Shown here: piece after piece, positions 16,643 to 61,569 of the stretch
Position numbering within the stretch: position 1 is the stretch's first letter
Layout: each line of letters begins with the position of its first letter
IMG/VR virus record: IMGVR_UViG_3300045988_076504
Span: 36,080-100,079 of that record
DNA length: 64,000 nucleotides
Direction: 5' to 3' (one strand)
Source of the DNA: a virus
Made by a program: the position numbers and the translations under genes
Notes under the pieces: model-generated
Told to the model about the DNA's origin: nothing
The model's input: the letters and a program-made list of their open reading frames with translations, nothing else
Database searches by the model: none

Positions 16643-18363
16643 TATATAGATATGACCAACCTGTAGATATGCCAATTCCAGAACTGTATGATACCGGTTT
16701 AATGTAGGCATACACACAGGCGATAAGAGAGCAATTTGAAAAAGGAGAAAAGCGTTTAGATGAGTTTGCATCAAAGTATGGAAACTTCACATCTCCTTTT
16801 GCTAAAGATATACAAGATTGGGACAGATTGACAATGGGTCGAATAAATAATATTTATAATGACCTTGTATCCAGAGGCATAGATCCATTGCGTAGCAGAG
16901 AAGGTTAGATGCTAATGGCATAGGCTATTAGACAAACACCTGTTGGTAAATTAAATCAATTAAGGCAGTCTGCTGCAATAGGTGAACAATATCTCAAAGC
17001 CAAAGGAGATTTACAAGCGAAGGGTTTGTATAGCCAGGAGATGGAAGATTACTTTTTAAAACATCCTTTTAGTCAATGGAGTACTTCTGAAAACGGATTG
17101 TTTAATAGAACATCTCCTTTGCAATATAAGGATATACATGATATCACTGATGATTGGTTTAAGCATTCTGAGAAAAAATTTGATGAGAAATTAACAAAGC
17201 AGAAAGCGGACGGTTATGATTATTATACCGTTTCTGAAGATGATATACATGGTATTATAAACAGTAATATTAATGACTTTCTGGATAGCGATTACGGTCG
17301 TTATTATTATTAGAAAGAAAAGAATTTGGTTTAGCGTCTAAATCCTACAGCCACACAAGATTAGATAGAAAATATGGCGATGTAGAAGTTCAGAGAAGAT
17401 ATTGTCAATAGAAACAGTGATTATCTAAGAAACGAACGTAAAGTCAACGAATATGCTAAATTGGATTATGAGGATAAACTCGAACGTAGTAGAAAAGAGT
17501 GGGAGTGGGCAAACAAACCGTCTGGAAAATCTGGCGGTCCTCAGGAAACATAGAACTATCATCAGAACATGTTGTTAAACGGTTTGTATAATTTATCAGG
17601 CAATACAGATTTTCTTGATCCTGGTGTTTCAAGCAAAACCAAAACAACTATTGCATCTAAAGCTATTTCTTATTTGAAAGACGCTGTAAAAGGGTTTGAT
17701 ACAAATCCAAAGGAGAGACTAAAACAGATAATAAAATACACAACAATATAGGGGTCTGAAGAAAAACCTTCTTTTATAGGCGAGAAATTTAACCATAAAG
17801 CAGGAAAGTCGTATGGTAATTGGATGATCGGAAACAAAAAGGTCGAAGGCTTGACATTATCTCAAAACGAATTGAACACTTTAATCAGTGATATAAATTG
17901 GGGTGCGATGACAGTAAACAGTAATATTAAACAGTCACATGCGTTACATAACAACATAGCAAACCTTTCCAAAAAAACTATTTCATACGAAGTTACTGAT
18001 AAAAATAATAAATCAAAGAAAGTAACAAAAACAAAACCTAAATACAGATTTATTCTTATTCCGGATACATACAACAATGTCGCAACAACAATAGATAAAA
18101 ACGGAGCTGCTGTACAAGCTAATCGTGGAACGCTGTATGCTGTAAATACAGATGATAACTCAAAACAAATAAATCTCGGTAAAACATTCATACCGTTTAA
18201 TAAAACAGATCCTGTGACTACAGATGGAAAAGCTAAAACTAACGAAATTACAACAGCATCCGGATATAGAACAAGAACAGATCAACAAGAAAATAGTGTA
18301 CGTAAAGTATTAGGTATGAAAAATACCGATAAGGGTGCTAATACGGGAGATTATGATTATTGA
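16639..18363 (+). CDS. Internal/ejected protein of unknown function (574 aa, ~9 TAG)
   Basis: It has an ATGA overlap with the upstream stop. It joins track ORFs 17026, 17569 and 17824 (frame 1). The stop is TGA 18361-18363. Confidence 0.7.
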
Positions 18364-18365
18364 TT

Positions 18366-21300
18366 ATGGGAGATATTAGAAAATTAAGAGCCATCTCCGC
18401 AAATGTGAGACGGCAAGAAGAATATCAGCAGCGATTGAGGAATGAAGAGCGTGAGAAAAAACGCAAAGAAGAACTTCTTCGTCAACGTGAAAAGGAATAT
18501 TAGGAAGCTTTAAAAAAGAGAAAACAGGCTGAAGAAGCCGACGCACTTATACGAAAACATAAGGAGGAAAATAATTATAAGCCTGTTGATTCTCTAATAA
18601 CAAAATCCGAAGAGCCTCAAAAACAAGATTCTGCCGATATAATAAGACCTGTAACTAAACCTCAACCGAGTATATATAAAAGTCCTTTTAGAGAAGATAC
18701 AATATTTGGAGCAGATGGTAAATTAAACAAGTACGATTGGACAAAGTCTGAAAAGGCTATGAAATATACTCCAATGGTACAAAAAATGGTAGATAAATAT
18801 AAGCAGGATGAGAGTGACAAGCGTTTGAGATATGCCACAACTCCTGCTCGTATTGCTAACATGATGGCAGATCAAGCTGATTTGGAAGAAGCTCTTGCAG
18901 CGATGGGTGCTCAAAATGATGCGAATACCATGGCAATGAAAGAGGAGCTTAAAAAGATCAAAAACGACATTCAAAAGGAAGTAGATTGGTATACTGCAAC
19001 AACACCTCGTAGTAATTAGAGTGATATTAGAACAGATAGTTCGCGACTTATTTCTTATTTTGATGCTGGTGGTATAGGAGAAGCTTCTGTAGATATAAAT
19101 CATGCGTTAAAACAGCAACAACAAGCTAAAAAGCTCGGTCTTATTAATGACGGTCAGTCTTTGCTGGCTGACGCGTATCACACGTTCATGATTTCTAAAA
19201 ACGAAGTTCAACGACAAACATCACAAGGTAAAATTAATACTCTATAGCAACAGTTAAATATGGCGAACCCTCAGGGTCTGGACGAGTATCAAGACATATG
19301 TGAACAATATATACAATTAAATCAATGGTTGAACAGTGTTAAAAGAAGATATACTAGCGGACAAGGAATTACACCAGAAGAGAAAAGACAATGGGATCCT
19401 GTACAGAAAAAGATCAACGAGTTAAATAGCAAGAAAGAACAATATGAAAATATGTTTAATAATCTTGCTACTTTTGAAAATCAAACAACTGTTGGAGATT
19501 GGGTGTCAAATTCACAAAAATACTTAAACAAACTCAATTTGGATTTTGGTACTGGTGTTGGAGGATCTTTGAAAGGATATGGTGAAAATATAACCGGTTT
19601 TTAGAAAGCATTGGCCAATAGAGATCAAAAAGCTGTAAATTTTTATAAAAACAAGTTAAAAGGTATATTTAAGAATTTCTCTGCAAAAGGTGAAGAAATG
19701 AAAAAACTTTGGTAGAGAGATTATGATATAGATACTGCAGATTTAAATCGTTGGACATCGGACTACAAAGTATCTGAATATTTCAAACAAAAAGAACAAG
19801 AAGCTAATGATTTAGCATGGTATAATCCTAAAAAACTATGGATGGCTCCGTCTTTGTTAGGATCGTCTATGTCTTCTCCGGAAAAAACATTAATGTCCGT
19901 GGGAGCCGGATTGATAGCTCTCATGGGTTCGATATTAGCTCCTGAGACAGGAGGTGCTTCTATAGCACTTACAGCAGGAGCCGTATCATTCTTAAGCAGT
20001 ATGGCAGCAGGAGCTGATGAGAACTTTGCAAATGTCGCAGATGCTACAAACGAAATAGCCAAGAAAGATTTAGCTAAAAAAGGTCAGATGGATAAATTTT
20101 TAGCTGATGCCAGACAAGTTCTTGGTTATAATACAACAGAAGAGGACGCGTTACAAGCATTTTATCTCGGCAAATATGTTCCGAATGACTTTAAGATACG
20201 TCAGACTTTGTTAGATGCTACGGCAGGTTCTGCAAAGCAGTATTATCAAGGTATGGGTGTAAATACATGGGATTCTCTTGTAGATGCTATTGTTACATGT
20301 ATGCCTACTGGTGGTATTGCAAAAGGATCTAAAGTTGGGTTCTTAACAGATAAAATCGCAAGTAAAGCGGATAGAAAGTTGTTGAAAGCTCAGCTTTCTA
20401 AATATATGAAAGCAAACAATGTATCTCTCAAAGAAGCTATCAAGGCTTTCAATGAAAGCGGTGCTAGTAGAACAACAATATAGAACGCCATAAATGATTT
20501 ACGACAAGCTGTCAATGCTCCTGCTAATTATCTAAGAACGCTATCTAAAGACGTTGTAGAGAAAATGGGACTCCCTGTATTGCAACAAAAAGCAAATGCG
20601 TTGTTAGACAAAGGTCTCGCTAAAATGGCAGAAAGATCTTTAAGACATACAGCTAATGTTACAGACATGCTTGCAGCTGTTCCAGAAAGAGTTTTGAAGT
20701 ATAGAAAAAACTTAAGACTTGCTGGTAAACTAGCAAAAGATCTAGGATGGCGTACAGCAGCGTCTATGTATTCTGAAGGTGCAGAAGAAGGTATTCAGCA
20801 ATTGCAACAATATCAACGTATGGAAGAAAGGTCGAATGCGTATTTCAATGTATTAGAACAACTTCCTCTTACGATAATTGATGGAGCTAAATTATGGAGT
20901 ACGTTCTTATTTAAGAATCCAGAGAACCTTACAGCGCAAGAAAGAGATATAGTACAACAGATGCATGGTGGTATATTGGGAGCTTTGTTACAAGGTGGAC
21001 CGATGATTGCAGCACAAGGAGTTGGTGGTACGTATAAGCAATACAAGCTTGATCAGATTATAATGAATAACCTTTTAGCAGACAATATAGCAACAAATGA
21101 CTATCTTGATAAAGCTAGGATTTTGTCGCAAGAGCTTGGAAAAGGGAATTATAAGAACATTATAGAAACTCTGAATCAATACGATGAGTTAACTACAAAT
21201 ATGCGAAATCGTCATAAAGACGATCCTAATTGGGCGCTTCCTCAAAATCATATAAGCAATCTCCATAAACTTTTAAATGTTGTTGCAAATTTGCAACAAA

Positions 21301-24300
21301 ACGAAGAGGTTAAAAAAATAAAGAATTCTATTTTTAATTATGAAGATGATACGAAAGGCGTTATAAGAAAAACCGCAAAAGGTATATGGGATAATACATT
21401 TAATAGAAAAGATGCAAAACGCAGAAGCCAACTTAGAGACGATTATAATACATATATAGGTATCTTAGCAACGAGGTTGAACGAGATAAATGATTCCAAA
21501 CAGTTCTTGGACGAAAAGACAAGAGATCTTATTTCTGCAAGATTTAATCAAGGTACATTTGAAGACTATGTGAACAACAATCAAGCTAATCCTCTTGTAG
21601 CGGAACTATCTACAAAAATTGAAAAAGATGAACACGGATATCATTTGGCTGACGCATATAAAGATAACCAAGATCTACAAGAGAAGTTTAAATTGCTACA
21701 AGAAAATTATTAGACTCACAATTCGAATGCAGAAGTACTCCATAGTCTTATAGGTTAGATGCAGACGATGCAGCTTTTACAAGACATGGAGAAGATTAAA
21801 CAACTCCCAGGAGGAACCACACTGTCATCTAGAGCTAAGTTTGAAGTTGATCGTACTAAAAAACGACTTCGTGAGTTACATGGCGATAATATAAAGCTTG
21901 ATACAGAAGAAGATGTTAAGAACTTTGCAGCATCACAAGGCTATAATATAGACGACGATTATGTGGATGCATTAAGACAGGTATCTGATGCTAGAATGCA
22001 AGTGAACTTCAATACGGAAATGTTCAACAGGCTCATTACAAATACGAAAGACGCTGTAAAAGCTGTCAAATCATTTAAAGAGAATCGTAAAGCCGATGAG
22101 GAGTTAAGATAGAGTATTGAAGATGATTTCTACAACAATGAAATAGATCGTCAAAAGTTCGAAGCGTCGGAAATAAACGATGATAACAATACATTTACAA
22201 AAGACGGTAAAACGTATGTTGTACGTGATGATTCTGATGGTGTACGTAGAGTATACGAATACGACTCTGAAAACGACAAGCTTGTTCCTACAAATAAATA
22301 GTTCAATAAACGAGAGTGGTACGATAGTAGATAGTAGTTTGATGCTGAAACAGCAGACCATGAAAAACTCAGAGCTAAATATGACGATTATAAAAGCTTG
22401 CTCGATAAAGATGTAAATGATCTGACGGATCAAGAGAAAGAAAGACTTGAAACATACAAAGGTATGTTAGATAAGTTTAATCGTTTTGATGATTCTGAGC
22501 AAGCAAGAAATAAGTATTTAGAAGATGCTTCTAAGACTCCAGGATTAAAAACAGATTATACAGAAACCTTTAGAAATTTATCAGAGTACGCTAGCGAAAA
22601 AGGATATACTCAAGATCAATTTGATAGCCTTGTAAACGAATTAGCAAAAACATCAAACGATGGTTATAGAACCAGAGAATAGAAAATACGCAAATGGGTT
22701 GAAGATGGTAGAGATGTCGAATATTCTTATACAGGAGATTCTTATTTTATTGGAAGCGATCATGTGTCAAAAGAAGCTTATGATTATGCTAAATGGTTGC
22801 AAAAACGTAACGAAAATCAAGATGACGTTGTAGAAGATGACGAAGTTTTGGTAGAGCCTCCAATTGTTCCAGAGACTCGACCAGAAGATGAAGATAACTA
22901 GAGAAAAGCTTATCAAAAGCCAGAAACTACGTTTACGCATAATGGAAAGCCTATCACCTTGCAACAAGCTTAGGTTTTAACACAACTGCAGCCGTATCTA
23001 GCATCTGATGAAAAATATCATTATGAATGGCGTACTAGTGAAAACTATTTTATAGAAGAGAATGGTAAAATTGTAATGTACAATCGTCTACATAGTTTGT
23101 TAGATCCGTATATTGCAGATGAGCCAGAAAAAACAGAATCTATAAAAGAAAATACAAGAATATTACAAGCCGCAAGAGACAAATGGAAAACCGCTATTGA
23201 CAATAACGAATCTTCTGACCGAATTAAAGAGTTAAGAAAAGAGTATGTTTCATTAATCGAACAAATGCGTGACGATTATAACGAAATAGTTATGCTCAAA
23301 TATAGTCAGAATGAATCAGATGTTAAAAGATTCTATTTAAATTTTGATGGATATTTTCAAAATGACGACATTCTTATAAGCGATGATGCTGTAAACGCAA
23401 TGGCTACCATGCTTGCTCGTAAAGATAACAATTTGTTCGAAGTTGGATCTACCACAGTATCTGGTACAATTGTAGACGAAATAGCAAGATCTGTATTCGC
23501 ACATTCTCGTGTGGACAATATTCCAAGATTTAAAATGAGCGATGAAACATTTTCTAAACTCGTTAAAGATCTAGAGAAAGAAAGAGATCGCTGGGAATCA
23601 CTTGGTTATACTATTGTAACAGAAGGATTGTGTTTCCATGGTGAAATCCAAGACAAAGATGGTAATATAGTCCGAGTTGCTGGAGAAACAGACATGTTAG
23701 CAATAGCTCCAGACGGGTCTATTACAATCGTAGATTATAAAACGTCTAAGAAATCATGGGAAACTAAACAACGTCCTACAGGTGTACAAAGTACCGAAAG
23801 TGTTATAGACGCATTGGATTGGCAATATAGCAAACGCTATGCTTTTGGTAAACGACAACGTTCTACAGCAAGAGTATTCTATACAAATCAATTGAACGCA
23901 TACAGGCAAATGATAACAAACTGTACTGGATTGTCTGTTGCAAATCTTCAACTGATGGGATTTTAGACAGATATTGAAGAAAGTAATGATAGAATATTGT
24001 TAAACAAAATAAAATCTATTAGCGAACCTACAATTGTAGATATTGCTGTATTAGATCCTGTATTGAGTGAACATTCTTATATAGAACAACGTAGTGTAAT
24101 AGAAGAAAGAATAAAGGAAACTAAAGAGCGTACAAAAACCGCATTTAAAGAATATACCGATAAGTTTGCTGCTGTTGGAGAATTGATGCAAGACGTTCAA
24201 GATCCTAAATTACAAGCTTTGTATAAATATGCGAAAGAACAGATTGATAAGATTGGAGACATTGATCAGATCAACGACTTGGACAGATTAAACTAGCTTT

Positions 24301-27300
24301 ATAATTGGATCAATAATAGCATGTCCAGTTTACGTAATTTGGAAGCGGAAGCTCAACAAGCATTGAATGCTCAATCAGAAGATGCGTCTAGAAACGAAGG
24401 TGTTACACCTAACAGCAAAAAATTCAATGCTCCACACAGAGTGTATAGTGATGAAGAGTTGAAACATTATAATCACACAGCACAGGATCCTAAATTCTTA
24501 AACGCCCAATAGAAGAAAGAATTACAAACGTTCAAAGATTGGACAACACGACCAGATTTCGCATAGAATGTTCAGTTTGAAATAGATTTCGATGCGTCCG
24601 GGTTTATACATGGAGTACCTACAGCGGGTACCAGATTAAAATTCAAATCTATAAGTTATAACGGTGTTAAATTATCACCATCCGTTGTGCAGAATATTTC
24701 ATTTATGTGGTCTGTTGATCAAGACGCATCATCATTACGCCAGCGTCTTATACAATGTTTTAATGACAATTATGACGATATCAAATCTGGCAAAAAGAAA
24801 ATCATATTAAAGAACGTACAAAGAACAAACGGTAAATTACTATTCGGTGATACTTCTAAAAATGTACAAGAAGCGTTGGAATTGTCAGACGAACAAGTTT
24901 CAAATTTGTTAAATTATGATAGCGATGCTGTACTATTAATATCGGATAGTGCTGGTATTGTACGTAGATTGGATAGTGAAGATAAGAAAGCCGGGTCTGG
25001 AACCGCTGAGCGTATTTCTAAAAAAGAAGAAAATAGAAACCGTCCTGGTATTGTATACATACAAAAGTAGCTGCATTATGCTGAAGATGAAGGATCTGGA
25101 AATAAACCACACACAGCTTTAATTCCGCTCACGCCTGCTAAAATGTCATCTGGTGCAGTAGATCTCATAATAGATATTCTTACAAACACCGGTAAATCCA
25201 AAAATATGTCTGCAAAAGACAACAACGGAAATTCAATACCGGGACCTATAAATAGATCATTACTGTTACACTACTTAATCCGTTTTGGAGGTGGTGCTGA
25301 AGCTATGATGAATAGTTTCCAATTCAATTATGAAAGTAATGGTCAAAACGGTTTGGACTACAGTAAAGTATTCATAAGTACAGATAGAGGTTAGACAAAA
25401 ACAACTTATAACTTAAAAGACATACAAGATGTATAGAAATTAAGAGAGTGGTTGTTAAATAATGCATATTTGAATGTACAAAATATATCTTTGATTCGAG
25501 ATAATGTAGCAACATCTAAGGACGGTATTTTTGCAGGAGTAAAAGAATGGTTTGATAATCATCCTGATGTAGAATCTATATCATACTCTGACGAATTTGT
25601 AATAACGAGAGATGATGTAAATTCTAATATCGGAGGAATACAATGGATGATTAAAAACAACTGGTTGCAATCTCAGTATACTGGTATTACGGACGCTATT
25701 GTATCTGCTAATGATTTTGACATAATAGATCAAGTTCAAAACGCTCCAGAAAATATTTAGAAACAGCAAGATGATTTTGATCGAGCTGTGGAAGAGCAAC
25801 TAGGACCGATTCCGGACGGTGTAAACGATAACAACGATCAAAACACAACAAACGATGCTCCGATCTCTTTTGATGACTGTGATAACGCTTGGGGAAACAT
25901 AATAGATCCTAGCGCGACACTATTCATGAGAAACCCAGAACATCCAAAACGACCGATAACAGAAAAACGTCAAATGGACAAAGCTATTCAAGATGTCAAA
26001 AGGATGTGTGGAGATACAGTTCTCATAGAAACGTTGGACAGTGTTCAAATGGCTGAAAGATTTGGAGATGCTGTTGGAGCATGTACTCAAGCAAGTATTG
26101 TGTTATCGTACGGTGCGGAAAACGGAGTTCAATACCACGAAGCATTTCACAGAGTTGTAGAATTAGCAATGCCAAAAGATGAGCGAGACAAATTGTATAA
26201 TCTGTACAAGACTAAATACGCTAAGAATACAAACCTTAAAGATAAGGATGTTGCTGAAGATTTAGCCGATATGTATTTTGATTACAGTAAGAATGTATGG
26301 CACCCGAGAAATAAGTTGTTTGCAAAACTATTCTCGAAAATATATAATTATATAAATGCTTTATTGACAACAAAAAGTTTTAAATTTGCAGCAACGTTTG
26401 TTAGAATTGATTACGGTAAATATGCTAAGAATGAAATAACAAAAGAAAATCAAGACCGTTTTACAAAAGAATTCCACAATGTACTGAAAATGACATTGAA
26501 AGATTCTACTGGTAAGGAGCATGTATTTAATAATGTATATACACAAACACAACTAAAAGACGCTGTTGATGTATTGTTACCTTTAATAATCAAATCTCAA
26601 GGTATCGATATTCTTGGTTCTAACGCAGATACTCTAAAAACAGATAAAAAATCTTTGCTTGCAGAAGGTTCTAAATTCGCACAAATATATAGACAGTTAA
26701 CGTGTGGTGATGCTACTGAATTATAGTTAAATCAAGCTGTTGCGGAAGGTAAGTTGTCTCCACTAACAAGAAATAATGCATTAGCTTTACGAGAAGTGTT
26801 TGACAACTGGTCTCTTGTACAACCGATGTTGGAAGACAAATTACGTGCCGTCGGACTTCGTTCGAAACTTGGAGATGTCAATCAGATAAGTGCAGATGTA
26901 ACTAGTCATACAGACGATGCCTTTTATTCTCATTCTATGAGTGACGATATAGGTTCTGCGATGCTTTATTTACTTAGTACTATACCAAATCAAAGGTATG
27001 TTACACAAGAAGATGTGGCTTCTGGCTTAGCTAAAAACATGTATGCTACAGATAAAAATGGAAATATTATAATGGAGAATGGTAAACCGAAACGCGCTAC
27101 TATTCCAGCAATACGTAATAGTTTCGGAATGACTTCGTATCTTCCATTTAAAGCTGTACACCAAAGAATGTTAACAGAATTGCACGATGTAAAAGATGTT
27201 CGTGATTTGGTAGAAAAACTTAAGAAGTTAGGAGAAGTAGATTACTTATTTAACACTCTTGCACAGTATCTCGAAAGATTTAGATACTTGTCATATATAA

Positions 27301-30300
27301 GGTTTTCAGATAAAGAGAAATTTGGCGAATATGTAGGATTCCCTGTCGTGATGTATAAAAACGCAATAGTCGATCCGTCATATTATATTGCAGATACATC
27401 TATTCGTAATGAAGATACAATGTATCCTAAACAAATACGCCTCGTTAAGGATTTAAAGGACAAAAAGGGCAATCTCATATGTAAGGCTGGTGATATATTA
27501 CAAGGAGCTGCTATATTGTAGGATCAAGATAAACAAACATTAACAACGTTGTTTTATCAGTCTATAAAATCACAGAAGATGAATTTCAACTTCTTCAACA
27601 TTAGAAATTCTAAAGGTGAGAATGGAAGATATGAATATTCATATTAGCCTACAAATACAGACAGATCAATATCTCAGTTGCCTATAGGGTGGTTTGATAA
27701 TATTAGAATAGGTCTTACAGGTTTGTATAACAAAGATGGTTCTGTTAATAAGTCTAACAAATCATTTGAAACGACAAGGCAATTCTTGATGTCCATAAGA
27801 AACCAGCTTATTAATAATTCTGGATAGGTATAGATTGGTGATAAGATATATAAAATGAGCGACGCCGCTGATTTCGATCATGTTGTTTCTGCTACTGTAC
27901 AATCTTTAAATAATGTTGGCATAATGGTAAATAAAGCAACATGGTACAACATGTTGCATCGATTAAATCCGAACGAAACCGATTACACAATATCGTTTAG
28001 AGAGATCATGACAGCAAGTAACGAAAAAGGTCTTAGTATCGCGCCATTTATAGAAAAAGGTGGAGTATTAGATAAATTACAAAAAGCTGTTGATTCTGGC
28101 GATTTGAATATGTTTACACAAGACGTTGCACAAACTGGAAAGAGAGGTGGTTATTCTGGAGCATATTTATACGCTAGAAATAATTTTGTTAGAAGACTTG
28201 CTGAAGAAACCGGTGTATATCGGTCAGCAACATCTGAAATAATGACAATTGGAGCAGGAGATACTAAATTGTATATGTATGCTCAAAACAATACCGCATC
28301 TGATGTTACTGACGATTTGAATTCATCTCTTAACGAAGACGGTACGGTTAGAGAAGGATCTATTTTGAGCGATATGTAGAATGTAGAATATGTAGTTTAT
28401 CATGACGACCGTGGCGGTATACATGGATCTGTAATAGCAAAGGCTTTATTAGATCCTAATTTTAATAGAAATCATAACAGACTCGAAGTTATTACAGAAG
28501 CCGGTTCTAAACAAAGATTTGGACCAAGAGATAGCGTAAAGTTTGCAGAAATGGAAAAACGAACAGATTATCTTTCTCGTATTCAAAAAATAACAGACGG
28601 TCTTATCATATTCCCAACATTGTCTGATAAATCCACATATATGACAATAAAAGGTTTTGATAAACAGTACAGACTTCCAGGATTTAATTACGACTAGAAT
28701 ATTACAGAAACAAGTTCTACTGCAGATTTAAATAATTTCGGGAAACTTCCGTTCATAAATAAAAACAACGGTGCTCTTATATTTGATGCTGCTGATAAAT
28801 ACAACAATTATTCTCAAAACGAAGTGATCGACCAGTTTATAGAGTATTATGAAGCAGAACATCGTAATGTGTTAAAAACGTTAAATGAACTTGGATTTGG
28901 TCCGGACAAAAGTAAAAAATTACCTAAAGAATAGCTGGTTAAGAACTATCATACCGGTAGTATGAACGGTGCGAGATATACTTCTATTTCTGGAATATAT
29001 GATGAAAATGGTAATTTTATATCATTTAATTTTAAAACCGATTCCGAAGATAAAGGTGTTATTGAATGCAACAAGATTGCAGAAACAGAATTCTTTAGTA
29101 AGCCGATAGAAGAAAAAAGAGCGATTGTTGCTAGAATATTAAAACACAGACTTGATGACGAATTACGCGGTTTGGTTGATGCCGGAATTATACAAAAGCA
29201 AAATAATGACAATTCTTCTCGGAAGAATGCAGATTATAATAATTATAAAAACGTGTTTTTATCGAATAGTGTGATAACACAACTAAAATAGGCGTATTCG
29301 TTAAATGAAAACTTTAAGAAAGCTGCGCCTGGATCATTAAATACTGAAAGTTTAGCTGTAGTAGCGTATGTATACGATATTATGTGTAAACATCTGATGT
29401 GTATAGAAGAAACACGTAGATTCTATACAGGTATGCCCCAGTTCTTTAAAACAAGTTTCGGAGAAGATGGTCGTTTAACTGTTTTTGGAAATGATGAAAC
29501 AAAACGTTACGGTGGTGTCGGATCTACTGGTGTAAACAATAGAGAAGATATTCCGGGAATGAACGATGATTATCGTGTAGCTGAAATAAATGATTGGGAA
29601 ACACCGTCTCCGGTTTTAGATTCTTTAGGAACGTTGTTTAAGATTGGAGAATATAGAGAGGCAGTCGCTAATATAAGATTGCGAGAGCTTGGAGAAAATG
29701 CAAACGAAATTTAGAAATATGCTTTGTATGATTCTGTAAATTAGATGGACGAAGATGCAATGCGAGAAGTACTAGATGAAGCAGGCGTATTAAAAATGCT
29801 GGATAAAAAGATAGAAAAAGAAGCAAAGGCTTTCTCTAATGTGAATGTAGCTGATGGTACGGCATTCATTAGTGACAAGATGTGCGAAAATCTTTTGAAA
29901 CAGCGTGGCGCATTTACAAAAGCTGTTGAAAATGCATTTAAAATACTGCGTAGTGATTCTGACGATTATCTGAAATTGTCCCAGTCATATAAAATTATAC
30001 ACAACGCTATGATCTCTACATAGAAATATTCAGCGTTTGGTTATAGAATGGAGAATGGTACACCTGTACATTATTATAATAAATATGCATTATTTCCGGT
30101 CTTTAAAGGAATATCGTACGGCTTTATGAAGAATCTGTATGAAAAAATGAATGACGCTGAGAATGGAGTAGATGTTGTATTGTTTACATCTGCTGTTAAA
30201 GCAGGATCTCGTGGAGCACAGCGTTTTGATCCGAACATATCTCAAGAAGAAATTAAAAATTTCTCGTTTAAGGGTCATATATATAAGTAGAAATACAAAC

Positions 30301-31157
30301 ATATGCGTAGACAGTTGAACACTGATCCTAGAACAGACGAAATAATGTCTGCTGGTACACAGGCGTTAAAAGTTGTATTATCTACATTACGAGACGGATA
30401 GACATACAATATACTTGGACCAGACGGTTAGATACACGAAGCCACATCTTCCGAAGTTAGAGATCGTGTAATGGAATTACTCAATAAGATTGCTGATTCA
30501 GGGTGGAATAAGTTGTAGGATCAATTCTTCACAAACGGCAACCTTGATTATTCAAAACTACAAGACTTCTTAATTCATGAGTTACTTGGAAGAGATGCTG
30601 ATCAAAATATACTCGATGCTTTGTAGCTCAATGAAAACAAAGATGGCTTCATAGTAGATTTAAATAGTGTTTCTAACATGACTTGGGTTGAAAGTATTTT
30701 GACGTCCAAAGTAAACAAAGATGTTATTGATTTACAACTTAAGGGAAACGCATTCTATCAGAGATCTGTATTTGGTATGGATAGTCCTTATATCGCAATG
30801 AGCGACGATGAAGTGTCCAACGAAATAAATGGAGGAAAACCATTACAAATGATCAATGAAGAAGGTAGTATGGATGCTGTGGTATCTATAGATTATTTTA
30901 TGGATATTATTCCAAAAGAATACAAATACAATTTTAATAAAGCTAAGCAGTGGCTTATAGATAATGGTATTATATCCGGTGTAAAAACTGGAGAAATAGC
31001 ATGGAGCAATGCAGAAGCAAACACCATGTCGTATCGTATTCCTACACAGGCTGCATCTTCAATCGGCGCATTACGATTTGTAGATGTGTTACCTATTGTC
31101 AGAGACACTATTGTACTGCCTAAAGAATTTACAGCTTAGACTGGTTCTGACTTCGAT
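18366..31157 (+). CDS. Exon 1 of the giant virion RNA polymerase polyprotein (4,264 codons, ~41 TAG)
   Basis: Twenty-one track ORFs from 18759 to 30678 are all in frame 0, and every gap contains only TAG. The exon ends ...TGSDFD at 31157. It contains a RecB-like nuclease motif set (GETDMLAI / IVDYKTSK / QLNAYRQM) and HEAFH at 26135-26149. Confidence 0.8.
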
Positions 31158-32083
31158 AAACATCAATGTCGAAATAAAAGTATGTGAATTGCTGGGAAAT
31201 CCCTATGGGACAATCAGCAGCCTAGCCCTACGAAAGGGAAGGTTCAACGACTAATAGTATATTATATAATAATTCCTCATAAATTGAAGAAAGAAATGAA
31301 AAAGATTTTAAAAAATAGATTAAATGAAAATGGTAGAAATCTCCTAATTGCCGCTGCACTTGGAGATGGATGTATAAGTAAACAAGGATAGATGTTAATA
31401 AATCATTCTTGGAAGCAATACGAATATTGTAAATGGAAACGAGAACTTTTAAAAAAGAACGGAATAAAAGTAGGTGTTTTACAACGTTTTGAAGGTTCAA
31501 ATGGATATTTAAAACACACAATACAATATAGATTTTGCATTGGTATTACACCATTTAACAAAGTTCTAAGACGTATTATGTACAATGAACACGGTAAACA
31601 TTATTCTCGTAAATTATTAAACAGACTAAGTCAACAAGGTCTTGCCTTGTGGTTTATGGACGACGGTGCAATATTACGTAGAAAATATAAAGGTAAATAT
31701 TGCGGGTTCTATTTAAGAATATCTACATATTGTACATCACAAGAAGCTGATGATATTATTAAATATTTTGTTGAAGAATGGGATATACACCCTACCAAAG
31801 TACATGAAAATAAAATAAAACATTATGATGCTTATACTATCAATTTTGGAGCAAAAGAAGGTAAGAAGTTAATAGATATAATTAAGCCTTATATGTGTCC
31901 AAGTATGATGTATAAAGTGTTATATGATATCGAAGAATTAAAATCTTATTATGATATACAAGATGTGAGGGAAGTTCTCACAGAAAGTACATTAGAGTCT
32001 GATAGACTACTAATGGAAGCGCATACTACATCGAAAGATGTAAAGATATAGTCTAATCTTCGTAGCAATACGAAGTATAAATG
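31158..32083 (+). mobile_element. Group I intron (926 nt) carrying a homing endonuclease gene
   Basis: P1: exon ttcgat(31152-57) pairs with gtcgaa(31168-73), with a U.G pair at the splice site. P10: caat(31164-67) pairs with exon-2 attg(32084-87). The last intron nucleotide is G. The core-like string is aaggttcaacgacta, and gacta pairs with tagtc at 32049-53. A hairpin cttcgta-gcaa-tacgaag lies at 32058-32075. Removal shifts frame 0 to frame 2 and restores GSDFD-IDKLY. Confidence 0.85.
31296..32051 (+). CDS. LAGLIDADG homing endonuclease with two motifs, encoded in the intron (251 aa to TAG 32049-51; one internal TAG at 31389-91)
   Basis: The motifs are LLIAAALGDGC and GLALWFMDDGA. ATG 31296 is in frame with track ORF 31392..32051 through TAG. 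If the terminal TAG is also read through, the ORF ends at TGA 32082-84. Confidence 0.85.
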
Positions 32084-35000
32084 ATTGATAAGTTATATAT
32101 GTCTACACTTCATTATGATGTAGAGTCTGTTGACAACGATTATATCGATAAAAAAGGATAGATACACAGAAGAAAGACATATAACGCTAAATCTTACAAT
32201 TTATCAGATGTTACAAACAATAACACAAACGAGTTGTTGCGCATATATTTGTCTTTGTTAAAAGATACCGGATAGTACAAAGATGGAAAGATTGTAGGTG
32301 GAAGATACGGACACGTATTAAGAAGATCTATTGATAGTGATACGGATTTGATAAAAGAGGTTCTTTCAGAAATAGAAAGTAGTATAGAACAAAAAGCATA
32401 CGAACCGTATCAATTTGAAAGTATGTCGTTTTAGGTTAATACCAGATCTGCATTTGCAACCGGTAAAACTGGTATCGGACCATTTGCGCTGAATAACAAC
32501 AGTCAAATTCTTACACAAATATATGGCATCAAGTTTATAAACGATGGTGGTATATTAAGTTCTTTCGGAGCTTTATCATTAGATAGGACTTCGGACGTTG
32601 ATGGAAAATCTATATTATCTTGGATTTCTGGTATGATTAATGCTCACGTAGACGTTGCGAAAGACCCGTATATATTGAGATTAAATATCAATAAAGACAC
32701 ATATAATCTTGCAGCATTGTTATTACGTTTAGGATTTGGAAGACACGCTCTTTATTTCTTAAACAATCCTGTAATGAGAGAGCTTTCTGCTATACGAAAT
32801 GAGCAGGACGGATAGATTGTAAACGACCCTGGAAAAACTCCAACACAGCGTAAAGAAAAAGCTGAGAATGAATACATTAAAGATGTATTCGGTAGTAATA
32901 GTGTGGCATTCTCATACGTAAATGCAAAACCAGATGAAAAAGATGATATTGCTAAACGAGCTTTTAAAACGATTGTACAGATATTTGGAAATCCTTTTAA
33001 AGAACATAAAGATACTACAATATTACAAAGTATTTGTTAGAGTTTGTATGGAGAAAATGGTGAGAAAAAGGTAACAGATCTGTCAAAGGACAAGATATAT
33101 AAGTTGGAAGATGGTACAAAATTATCACCATTTGAAGTTCAACAATATGTATATATAGCATCTAAAGAATTTGAATCTTACGCTTAGGGTTTGTCAGACT
33201 TAGTACAATATACTAAAATCGACACAAAGAAACAAGGTATAAATTATACAGAACAGTAGAAGTATTTGCAAGGTTATGAGAAACTTTACAATAGCGGAAT
33301 GTTTAATTCAAATCTGAAACAATTGTTGAACGATTCTTATATACATACAAAAACAATATACGGTACTTCATTCTTACCTAGAGTATTAGGCGGACAAATG
33401 ATCCATATGTCATATCAATTCCAAGCTGAAACAGAATCGATTTTGGATAAAATTAACAACCATTCTAAAAATTCTAGAGAAGCTGTACAAAAAGCAATGC
33501 TGTGTTATATTAAACAAAAAGCTTTCAATAAGGCGTTTAAAGATTATGTTGATAAATATAACGAGCAAAATAATACAGACTACACAATAGAGAAATATTG
33601 GGAACATTTAATAAAAGGAAACGATACTTTATCTAATCGTATTTAGAAGCTACAGAGATGGATATAGGCTGATAATAAAGGACTGCTAAAAGAATTCGGT
33701 TAGAATGGTGTTATAACAAATGCGATACTTAAGAACTTATATCCGGTACCGTACATATCTCAATATGGGCAAGATCACTTTGATATTATCACTTTAGGAA
33801 ATAATAGCGAAGATGAAAAATCTATAAGTAATGATTATATATATTCATGGGAACAGATGTTAAATTATACAAATAGTGAACGTCTGGGATTACAGAAATA
33901 TATTAGAGATTTAGCTAACGATCTTGCTATATACGCATTTATGACATCTGCAGACAGTAAAGGATTTACAAAATTCTTTAAATACGCGCCACTTCAATGG
34001 AGAAAAGAGTTTGGATATTGTGATAATATTGCGGAAGCAAACAAAGAATATCAAGAAGGTGGTCTCACATTAACTACAGACAATGTTAGCGAATACGGTA
34101 TCGATTTCGATGATTTTATATAGAATTTCTATTACGACAACAATATATTACCGGAAACGTCTTTAACTGATCGTAATGGTCGCCAACAAATGGTTACTTC
34201 AGCATTTACATATAACACTCTTGACGAATACGGTAATCCTACATTACGTACAGAACCTAAAAATATAATAGGTCTTAACATGCGTGGTAATAAATATGCA
34301 CAAAGTATTAGTAAAAACAAAGACGGATACTTCCCAGAATATATAAAAACACGTAGAAACGGAACACGATATAACGATAACGATCAATTCCTATTGTATA
34401 AACTCGTAGATGTCGGAATTGTAAAGAATGGAAATGTCGAATTAGAATATCCAATATATCAAATTATAAACGCCAAAGGTTTACAAATGCAAATTGGTTC
34501 ACAAACATATCAATTCTATTCTTGTGGAATGAATGATAATTACGAGCGTTCTCAATTTACCACGAAAGATAAATCTGGAAATAGGGTAAAGCCAACCATG
34601 GAGCAAGTGCAAGAGTCTTATAATAACCGCAAAGCTGCTTTATAGAAATACATCAATGAGAATAATTATTCTATACTTGATGCGGTTAAGAAAGCAGGAC
34701 TCGTTAGTAAGAATGATATATTTGGAGGACAGTTATCTAGTATACAAGAAGCGGCATATAGCGGTATAGGTTCAAATAAGAATACTGTGAATGTTAACTT
34801 CGGAGCAAGCGATAATCCACATTTGTCTAATTTTGCAAAACGTCCTATTTCTGATATATTTGACGTAGTTGAAAGTTTTATTAATTCTCCAGAGTTTTAT
34901 AAAATAAAATCTACGGTTAAACATAAGGCAGACACTGTAGAAAATGCGTTCTAGGCGTTAAAAGTGTTGTATTCTGATTTGAATGATAATGATAAGGTGG

Positions 35001-35386
35001 TTAAATTTAATCATATTATATCACTACCGTCTGCAAAACAAGCTAGAGCGGAAGGTAGATCGTTACCTATTAGTAGTACAAAACTTAAAATGTGGGACGA
35101 TATAAGTACTGATGTATTACAGTCTTTGATGAGGGCTTCTTTTGAGCAGAATGAAGACGCAGCGCAAGCATTGGTTGATACTGGTGATAAAATAATAACA
35201 CATGATAACGCAAAAGGTGAATCTTTAGATGATAGATTTGCTCCAGCATTGACTCAGATACGCCAAGAGTTAATAGATGGAGGACATGCTCCAAACACTG
35301 TAAAACAACAATAGTCTTTGAAAGATTATCCCGCTAACGAGGCTCTTGATGAATTAGCAGATCAAATAGACGAACAATGTAAATAA
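32084..35386 (+). CDS. Exon 2 of the giant virion RNAP polyprotein (1,100 aa, ~14 TAG), with a NADAR/DUF1768-like C-terminal domain
   Basis: Frame 2 is open from the splice site and joins track ORFs 32633, 33266, 33857, 34190 and 34964. The true stop is TAA 35384-35386. The C-terminus reads HLSNF ... ENAFQALK ... MWDD ... ASFEQNEDAAQALVDTGDKIITH. Confidence 0.8.
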
Positions 35387-45419: not shown

Positions 45420-45540
45420 TAAGAATGAGAGGACTCGAACCTCTTGATTATCCATATTGACAAGATTCGAACTTGCATACGTCAGCTTAATAGCTGATGC
45501 CTTACCTGTCGAGCCACAATATTGTATATATAAACATTCT
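45420..45540 (-). ncRNA. Composite tRNA-like element: an outer acceptor/T-arm minihelix enclosing a 72-nt cloverleaf-like core
   Basis: Minus strand: 5' AAGAATG (45540-34) pairs with CATTCTT (45427-21), next to the T-arm AGAGG-TTCGAGT-CCTCT (45444-28). The core at 45523-45452 has its own acceptor stem, D-arm and T-arm. Confidence 0.45.
45452..45523 (-). ncRNA. tRNA-shaped core lacking a 7-nt anticodon loop
   Basis: Acceptor (A)ATATTG/CAATAT(G). D-arm GCTC-GACAGGTA-AGGC. T-arm GCAAG-TTCGAAT-CTTGT. Variable loop 5 nt. The anticodon-position hairpin TCAGCT-ATTA-AGCTGA closes to a tetraloop. Confidence 0.45.
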
Positions 45541-52919: not shown

Positions 52920-52975
52920 TAAATAAAATAATAAAATGAAAACAAAATTAAAACACTCTTACGATTAAAATTTTG

Positions 52976-53059
52976 TACCTCCAGCGGGACTCGAACCCGC
53001 ACGTCACATGGGACAACAGATTTTAAGTCTGTAGCGGCTGCCAATTACGCCATGAAGGT
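52976..53059 (-). tRNA. tRNA-Leu(UAA), class II, 84 nt, CCA not encoded
   Basis: ACCTTCA-TG-GCGT-AATTGGCAG-CCGC-T-ACAGA-CTTAAAA-TCTGT-[TGTCCCATGTGACGT]-GCGGG-TTCGAGT-CCCGC-TGGAGGT-A. It has a 7-bp acceptor stem, GG in the D-loop, U33, A37 and a long variable arm. Confidence 0.85.
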
Positions 53060-60839: not shown

Positions 60840-61090
60840 TCCAACTGACTCAAGGAATTGTCAGGACTCATACTTACGCTACGTGAGTATAGTCAACAAT
60901 GTTATTGTTCTGATTTATCGAATTCTGAAATCTCGTATTTACTTCCTCTATCTGTCAAAACCAAACACGCCCTAATGAACAGTTTTACAACATGTTCAGG
61001 TTGTCCATCAATCGGGTGGTCACCAGAAAGTTGGCTGAAGACCGTGGACGTGGAGGGATTCGAACCCTCGTCCAAATAGATTAACTCATA
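60840..61090 (-). ncRNA. Candidate circularly permuted (two-piece) tmRNA-like element
   Basis: Upstream piece: CTATTT-GGAC-GAGGG-TTCGAAT-CCCTC-CACGTCC-A (61079-61045). After a 72-nt spacer comes GGGCGTG-TTTGGTTTTGAC-AGATAG (60972-60948). The acceptor pairing is 7 bp with G3.U70 and discriminator A73. There is no D-stem. AGATAG/CTATTT is a P2-like helix. Confidence 0.35.
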
Positions 61091-61569
61091 CTCAAACGAT
61101 TTCATTTTGTACTATGATGAATTGATCAGACCCATCATAGTTGTGTACATGTTAAATACTACAATCGTACATCAATTGGAATCATAAGATCAGCTGCTCT
61201 TAATCTCTCCGTATGACGTACAATTATAGTATTATATTAGTACATAAATATCTTAGTTGCAATAATGTCATGGTTCCAAGACTCTTAGACGTTGCAAACG
61301 TTAACACTTTGACAGTACATTTGGATGCTTTTAGTTCAACCGAACCTACTCACATACGACTCGATGGTTCACAAATGTTAATTGTTGATCTAGTGACCAT
61401 AGTTTATTCTCCCTGGTTGAGAGTTCTTTTCCCGCTGGCTCTAGGCTCTTTAAGCGTCAATGTCAATTCATCAATATTTCACCCATACTTTAACCGCATC
61501 GCGCCTTACAAAAGTCCAATGGGTATATAAAGTGACTGATTCGAGATTCTGCACTTTGGAAATAGTGGT

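Follow-up and report, generated by a model that had tools for sequence, protein, structure and literature searches.

A group I intron in the giant virion RNA polymerase gene of a TAG-recoded crAss-like phage

[quoted passage not shown] 2021, PMC7886860). The intron hosts named in the text of that study are MCP, PolB, primase, ATP_43b and TerL; a 'LAGLIDADG intron-encoded endonuclease maturase' is listed for the transcription gene block in the legend to its Fig. 3, and neither splice sites nor RNA structure are given for an intron of the RNA polymerase (RNAP). Unexplained disruptions within the RNAP DxDxD motif were also described there for Zeta phages (PMC7886860), a point repeated in a 2023 review. 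Detection of those introns relied on protein domains, a route by which an ORF-less type of 261 nt would be missed. For the virion RNAP of phage phi14:2 (gp66), replacement of any of the three Asp residues of DFDID abolishes RNA synthesis, and packaging in the virion and transcription of early genes have been established for phi14:2 only (bioRxiv 10.1101/2020.03.07.982082).

The classical phage introns (T4 td, nrdB and nrdD, the Bacillus SPO1-type and SPbeta-type introns, and Twort) have the same P/Q/R/S core as the intron described here, and in both cases a conserved site of an essential enzyme is occupied and a homing endonuclease ORF lies in a peripheral region. As a rule, phage group I introns occupy catalytic sites of essential enzymes. 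The enzymes encoded by phage introns are mostly of the GIY-YIG, HNH, PD-(D/E)xK or EDxHD types (PMC3984707).

The window analyzed here, a stretch of 64,000 nt of viral DNA, comes from a TAG-recoded crAss-like phage nearest to the Suoliviridae (Suoliviridae-like), and at 31158-32083 a group I intron interrupts its giant virion-RNAP gene. From its sequence, we regard this element as very probably a bona fide group I intron that splices at these boundaries. The phage order and the combination of TAG recoding with a group I intron are the same as in Yutin et al. 2021, whereas the host gene is the RNAP. Unlike the classical introns, it resides in a single-chain, two-barrel crAss RNAP, both host gene and intron ORF are in TAG-recoded code, and the encoded enzyme belongs to the LAGLIDADG family, less usual in phage introns than GIY-YIG or HNH. 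Since the element class has already been described for crAss-like phages, the exact site (DFD/ID, with the slash marking the insertion), the structure, the ORF-less forms and a second site (GSD/FDID) are additions rather than surprises.

The interrupted polymerase gene and its recoded context

The host gene was assigned using a 600-residue spliced segment, which matched phi14:2 gp66 (PDB 6VR4) with a phmmer E of 4.4e-21. The match consists of two stretches (query 30-327 against gp66 1125-1404) around the metal-binding double-psi beta-barrel. Across the junction, TGSDFDIDK is identical to gp66 and aligned with gp66 1361-DFDID-1365, and the catalytic motif DFD[IV]D was found only when 31157 was joined to 32084. 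Judged by this homology, the host gene is a crAss-type virion RNAP.

The open frame of exon 1 begins at 18357, with the first Met codon a few codons further in, and contains 41 in-frame TAG codons, read as Gln. The last residues that it encodes are T G S D F D, and its nucleotide end is ...GACTTCGAT, where 31149-31157 reads gac ttc gaT. Exon 2 starts with ATTGATAAG, reading att gat aag from 32084 onward. Within the codons for the catalytic DFDID motif, the insertion point therefore follows the second Asp and precedes the Ile. With the exons ligated and TAG as sense, a single ORF of 5,367 codons results, whose sole stop is terminal. Without ligation, a long ORF from 18357 to 31184 stops at TGA 31185-87, so that a separate upstream polypeptide would end in ...GSDFDKHQCRNKSM, and a long ORF in another frame runs from 32081 to 35383.

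These results agree in most respects with an initial annotation made from the letters of the window. The exon ends and the intron interval given there match the sequence, as do the final G of the intron at 32083 and the 1,100 residues said to lie downstream, which is what exon 2 encodes. The proposal that splicing would rebuild the catalytic DFDID was borne out by the identity with gp66, and the frame switch attributed to the 926-nt length follows from 926 mod 3 = 2. The premature stop had been placed at TGA 31183-85 and needs to be moved to the position given above.

Uninterrupted relatives provide the ligated sequence directly. In a tblastn search, 28 phage records, nearly all crAss-like, span the junction as one uninterrupted piece. 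The uninterrupted target sequence of the window-type site is ACTGGTTCTGACTTCGATATTGATAAGTTATAT. In cr124_1 the sequence ggttctgacttcgatattgataa equals window exon 1 and exon 2 exactly ligated, and no other uninterrupted allele is as common among 80 IMG/VR relatives; the cr130-type uninterrupted site reads ACTGGTTCGGATTTCGATATTGACCAC. The presence of a DFDID-like motif at this position in homologous RNAPs, on which the initial annotation had staked its reading, was found in every relative fetched: a contiguous G[ST]DFD[IVL]D is present in 80 of 80 from the IMG/VR profile search, which was seeded on GSDFDID and is biased to uninterrupted genes, so that no intron frequency can be derived from it. 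A single junction peptide used as query for related loci found nothing, and a profile was needed. No close relative of exon 1 was found in phage records by megablast.

The gene is located in a region in which TAG appears to be a sense codon. From 1 to about 42 kb, the plus strand carries long co-directional ORFs with many in-frame TAGs, and the number per gene reaches 41 in the plus-strand late and virion genes compared with 0-1 in the minus-strand genes (42-64 kb). Aligned with L009, the closest relative found, TAG corresponds to Gln at 20 of 24 window codons. This comparative pattern fits the late-gene TAG-to-Gln recoding of Delta-group crAss-like phages (PMC7886860). The recoding is needed to read both the host gene and the endonuclease described below.

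No UAG suppressor tRNA was found within the 64-kb window, where the only clear tRNA is a Leu(UAA) at 52975-53059 on the minus strand. A tRNA-like match on the same strand at 45452-45523 (RF00005, 36.6 bits) was not called by ARAGORN; its anticodon arm, UCAGC-UAUUAA-GCUGA, has a loop of 6 nt, or of 8 nt with the last pair open. A further RNA gene was observed on the minus strand at 60874-61104, where the Rfam tmRNA_permuted model RF04321 scored 57.5 bits (gathering 47), again with no ARAGORN call. By eye, its acceptor stem GGGCGUG/CACGUCC contains G3.U70, the alanine identity element. The region is approximately 72% identical to annotations of 'transfer-messenger RNA, SsrA' in cr124_1 and cr7_1, with shorter matches in cr272_1 and cr273_1. 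It is a known, though little-discussed, phage-encoded two-piece tmRNA.

Table 1. Positions of the gene, the intron and its structural elements; window coordinates except in the last row
Feature	Position	Strand	Basis or remark
Exon 1, giant virion-RNAP-containing gene	18357..31157	+	ORF with TAG as sense; homology to 6VR4 gp66
Group I intron, 926 nt	31158..32083	+	omega-G at 32083; RF00028 on both halves; helices; relatives with ligated sequence
Exon 2, I D K L Y ..., 1,100 codons + stop	32084..35386	+	first six bases attgat form P10
P1 5' strand, ttcgaT	31152..31157	+	last U is the U.G wobble at the 5' splice site
Internal guide sequence	31162..31173	+	atcaat 31162-67 (P10), Gtcgaa 31168-73 (P1)
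5' half of catalytic core	31179..31253	+	alignment to RF00028 and helix table
P3	31179-86 / 32020-27	+	3' strand cgcatact
J3/4, aat	31187-89	+	
P4	31190-95 / 31214-19	+	
P5, tccc/ggga	31200-03 / 31207-10	+	
P6, gcc/ggt	31220-22 / 31241-43	+	
P6a, ccct/aggg	31226-29 / 31235-38	+	
P7, gacta/tagtc	31249-53 / 32049-53	+	
Double-motif LAGLIDADG homing endonuclease, 251 aa	31296..32051	+	PF03161; between P7 5' and P3 3' strands
3' half of core	32020..32083	+	P3 3', P8, J8/7, P7 3', P9, omega-G 32083
P8, acatc-gaaa-gatgt	32028-32 / 32037-41	+	GAAA loop
P9, cttcgta-gcaa-tacgaag	32058-64 / 32069-75	+	GCAA loop
ORF-less 261-nt introns, GSD/FDID site	L105 9582-9842, L127 5712-5972, L145 4511-4771, L163 406-666		

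Ribozyme core and intron-encoded endonuclease

A default Rfam scan of the whole window at the gathering threshold (50 bits) gave no group I match. This absence is a false negative, since an ORF of about 760 nt splits the RF00028 model and no single match reaches the threshold. When Infernal was run in E-value mode, the check that the initial annotation had recommended, RF00028 gave two partial matches, each below gathering: one to the 5' half at 31120-31298 (43.2 bits, E 1.8e-9) and one to the 3' half at 31940-32075 (31.2 bits, E 7e-6). In the whole-window RF00028 scan, the E-value of the 5' half was 1.2e-7. Together with a complete P1-P10 core that shows covariation and with ORF-less homologues that score 88-91 bits, the matches on both halves uphold the group I identity proposed in that annotation.

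The pairings with the exons were likewise confirmed, with one revision. The hand-derived P1 holds with its U.G at the cleavage site and comprises 6 bp counting that pair. For P10, the pairing with exon 2 is real; its extent had been given as 4 bp (caat with attg) and is actually 6/6 bp (atcaat with attgat at 32084-89).

Pattern searches in IMG/VR and metagenomes recovered 13 related introns in the RNAP motif, and helices were tabulated per sequence for 11 introns, the window's included. Across these 11, there are four sequence versions of P3, five of P8 and four of P9, every one of them paired, while P4, P6 and P7 are invariant. One pair of P5, read directly from the intron sequences, is C-G, A-T or T-A, and P1 covaries with the codon choice of the exon (for example Ser AGT versus TCG in L116). 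The P1-P10 core is complete and is backed by covariation in P1, P3, P5, P8 and P9. The P3 assigned by Infernal within the 5' half was rejected, as the true 3' strand, which covaries in four versions, lies downstream of the ORF and directly before P8. MAFFT alignments of ORF-deleted constructs placed P3' and P8 out of register between classes and were not used.

P2 is absent or indistinct in the window intron, and small hairpins flank the homing endonuclease gene (HEG) between the P7 5' and P3 3' strands. Subgroup IA introns have additional helices, P7.1 and P7.2, in this same interval. The architecture here appears IA-like, with peripheral sequence of a putative P7.1/P7.2 type between P7 and P3'. 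The 5' half of the core is approximately 82-87% identical to intron cores of Bacillus, Vibrio, Acinetobacter and Pseudomonas phages, and over about 67 nt the core is 81-87% identical to Bacillus, Vibrio, Acinetobacter and 201phi2-1 phage sequences. In Pseudomonas phage 201phi2-1 (gp273/274), the core match falls under an RNAP beta CDS that is annotated as interrupted by a mobile element.

The endonuclease matched Pfam PF03161 (LAGLIDADG_2) over residues 22-192 with 67.5 bits (cut-off 25; E 1.8e-18), and both motifs can be seen in the translation, as LLIAAALGDG (residues 16-25) and LALWFMDDG (116-124). An in-frame TAG at codon 32 (31389-91) falls between the first motif and the remainder, so UAG must be read through to make the complete enzyme, just as in the host gene. 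The standard-code stop, TAG 32049-51, is inside the P7 3' strand (agataTAGtc). If this terminal TAG is also read as Gln, the ORF becomes 11 codons longer and ends at TGA 32082-84, which straddles the 3' splice site and has the first base of exon 2 as its last base; protein coding would therefore overlap P7, P9 and the 3' splice site. The gene is intact. Compared with the L009 copy, its substitutions are confined to third (38) and first (13) codon positions, with 0 at second positions, which indicates purifying selection. The enzyme could be without cleavage activity or could act as a maturase, properties that are invisible in sequence. The endonuclease, the TAG recoding, the true P3 3' strand and the prior description of the element class were all absent from the initial annotation.

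Intron relatives, spread and competing explanations

A homologous intron was found in the RefSeq genome cr131_1 (NC_055902) and in eight IMG/VR genomes (L004, L005, L007, L116, L105, L127, L145 and L163). These sibling introns follow the first Asp codon (GSD/FDID), 6 nt upstream of the window site. The assignment to one or the other site is unambiguous because the Phe codon is in exon 2 for the siblings and in exon 1 for the window. Host gene, motif and HEG position are shared; identity in the 5' half is 79%, there is no difference in the P10 guide ATCAAT or the J8/7-P7 segment, and the LAGLIDADG_2 endonucleases are homologues (37-39% aa, E about 1e-46). One base separates the P1 guides (GTTCGAA... 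in the siblings versus GTCGAA) with the P10 guide unchanged, whereas P3, P8 and P9 are of wholly different but compensated sequence. In the RefSeq annotation of cr131_1 (NC_055902.1; L001 1-4529) the RNAP gene is broken into three 'hypothetical protein' CDSs, gp50, gp49 and gp48, of which gp49 is the LAGLIDADG endonuclease, and no intron is marked.

Four of the sibling copies have no ORF and are 261 nt long. The three that were scanned scored 88.4-90.9 bits with RF00028, against a gathering threshold of 50. About 62 nt with two hairpins separate the P7 5' and P3 3' strands in these copies. Their 5' half and P9 resemble those of the HEG-containing GSD/FDID introns, while P3, P7.1/7.2 and P8 differ, which suggests a mosaic history.

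At the window site itself, an insertion at the same nucleotide is present in the independent assemblies L009, L188 and L187, and at least four independent contigs have the same intron. Identity to the L009 copy is 93.7% for the intron, compared with 82% and 78% for the flanking 900 nt of exon. In L187, a metagenome contig, the intron matches the window's at 93.5% identity over its first 679 nt, and host exon 1 has 27.5% aa identity to that of the window over 500 residues. This is the pattern that recent horizontal transfer by homing into conserved motif DNA would be expected to leave. In the same contig (ERZ1026901, 1-1564), the last 11 exon residues, EFTAQTGSDFD, are identical to the window's; they could be a co-conversion tract from homing or plain conservation of the motif.

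The alternative that deserves most attention is that the element is a decayed, splicing-dead relic, with the RNAP being a pseudogene or working as two associating polypeptides and the endonuclease being effectively free-standing. Splicing is inferred here from sequence and no single match reaches the Rfam gathering score, and RNAP ORFs of the Zeta group are known to be disrupted within DxDxD with unknown mechanisms of expression (Yutin et al. 2021, PMC7886860), all of which a relic would accommodate. A relic would hardly be expected, however, to keep the core helices, the U.G pair, omega-G and P10 all intact and covarying, or to be retained as the same intron in at least four independent contigs. 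The ribozyme parts show very few changes between the window and L009, and these are in loops or extend P1. The DFD/ID split would moreover part the three metal-binding Asp residues, and gp66 tolerates the loss of none of them. We consider a relic unlikely on this balance.

Removal or bypass of the insert at the level of protein or translation, by an intein, a programmed frameshift or ribosomal bypass, is far less probable still. LAGLIDADG inteins also target catalytic motifs, and inteins have been reported in crAss-like TerL (Yutin et al. 2021, PMC7886860). Yet 926 nt is not a multiple of 3, the frame of exon 1 meets the TGA at 31185-87 and the endonuclease is in another frame. A Pfam search of the product gave LAGLIDADG_2 only, with no Hint domain found, and the covariance-model and covariation evidence indicates an RNA structure. 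An intein identity was rejected on the first, second and last of the protein-level counts, namely an insert that is out of frame, a stop in the exon frame and the missing Hint domain in Pfam. Equally improbable is an assembly error or a chimeric contig by which a foreign, intron-like fragment came to lie in the gene. The window is probably metagenome-derived and there is no near-identical record in the phage collection, which leaves room for such an error; but the same-nucleotide insertion recurs in L009, L188 and L187, sibling introns lie 6 nt away in at least nine further genomes including RefSeq NC_055902, and P1 and P10 are complementary to the flanking exons. A self-splicing group I intron accordingly remains the preferred reading of 31158-32083.

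Proposed splicing and homing, and their implications

For the group I intron, a sequence of events can be proposed. The ribozyme would fold in the late transcript, and exogenous guanosine would attack after U31157; exon 1 would then attack after G32083, restoring GAT/ATT. Translation with UAG as Gln would yield a full-length polymerase with all three Asp residues. Because of its own in-frame UAG codons, the endonuclease would be made in full only under active recoding, late in infection. In mixed infections it may cut uninterrupted alleles (ggttctgacttcgat^attgataag), after which the intron would be copied into the cut allele by double-strand-break repair.

The two sites raise the possibility that a single intron lineage colonized two positions 6 nt apart in one motif by a transposition that the guide sequence permitted, a history that we put forward only tentatively. 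The target contexts are quasi-repeats, TTCGGAT/TTTGAT for GSD/FDID and TTCGAT/ATTGAT for GSDFD/ID, and the P10 guide ATCAAT fits both sites because the motif DNA repeats itself imperfectly in tandem. The window's clade uses GAC for the first Asp and thus has no obligatory U at the upstream site, which would explain why the intron is at the downstream site there. The shift may have occurred by reverse splicing or by ectopic cleavage through relaxed specificity of the endonuclease. For reverse splicing, P1 complementarity over 4-6 nt is enough, endonucleases of relaxed specificity that cut at ectopic sites have also been discussed, and guide-permitted intron transposition has so far been argued mainly from rDNA introns (PMC3984707). 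If the proposed history is true, the RNAP introns would be an example of such transposition in a protein gene.

The practical consequence for crAss-like phages is that, where the intron and the TAG recoding go unrecognized, an essential virion RNAP is annotated as fragments with a seemingly broken catalytic motif. ORF-less introns escape intron searches based on protein domains, and they may be behind part of the unexplained 'disruptions within the DxDxD motif' described in other crAss-like RNAP genes. The findings point to a homing element that moves between very distant gut crAss-like phages and whose target, as for other homing elements, is the most conserved DNA in the genome. By adopting the recoded UAG of its host, the endonuclease would have its expression tied to late infection. 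With two sites at a distance of 6 nt, and with forms that have or lack the ORF, these introns are a small natural system for working out how guide complementarity and endonuclease specificity jointly determine where an intron sits.
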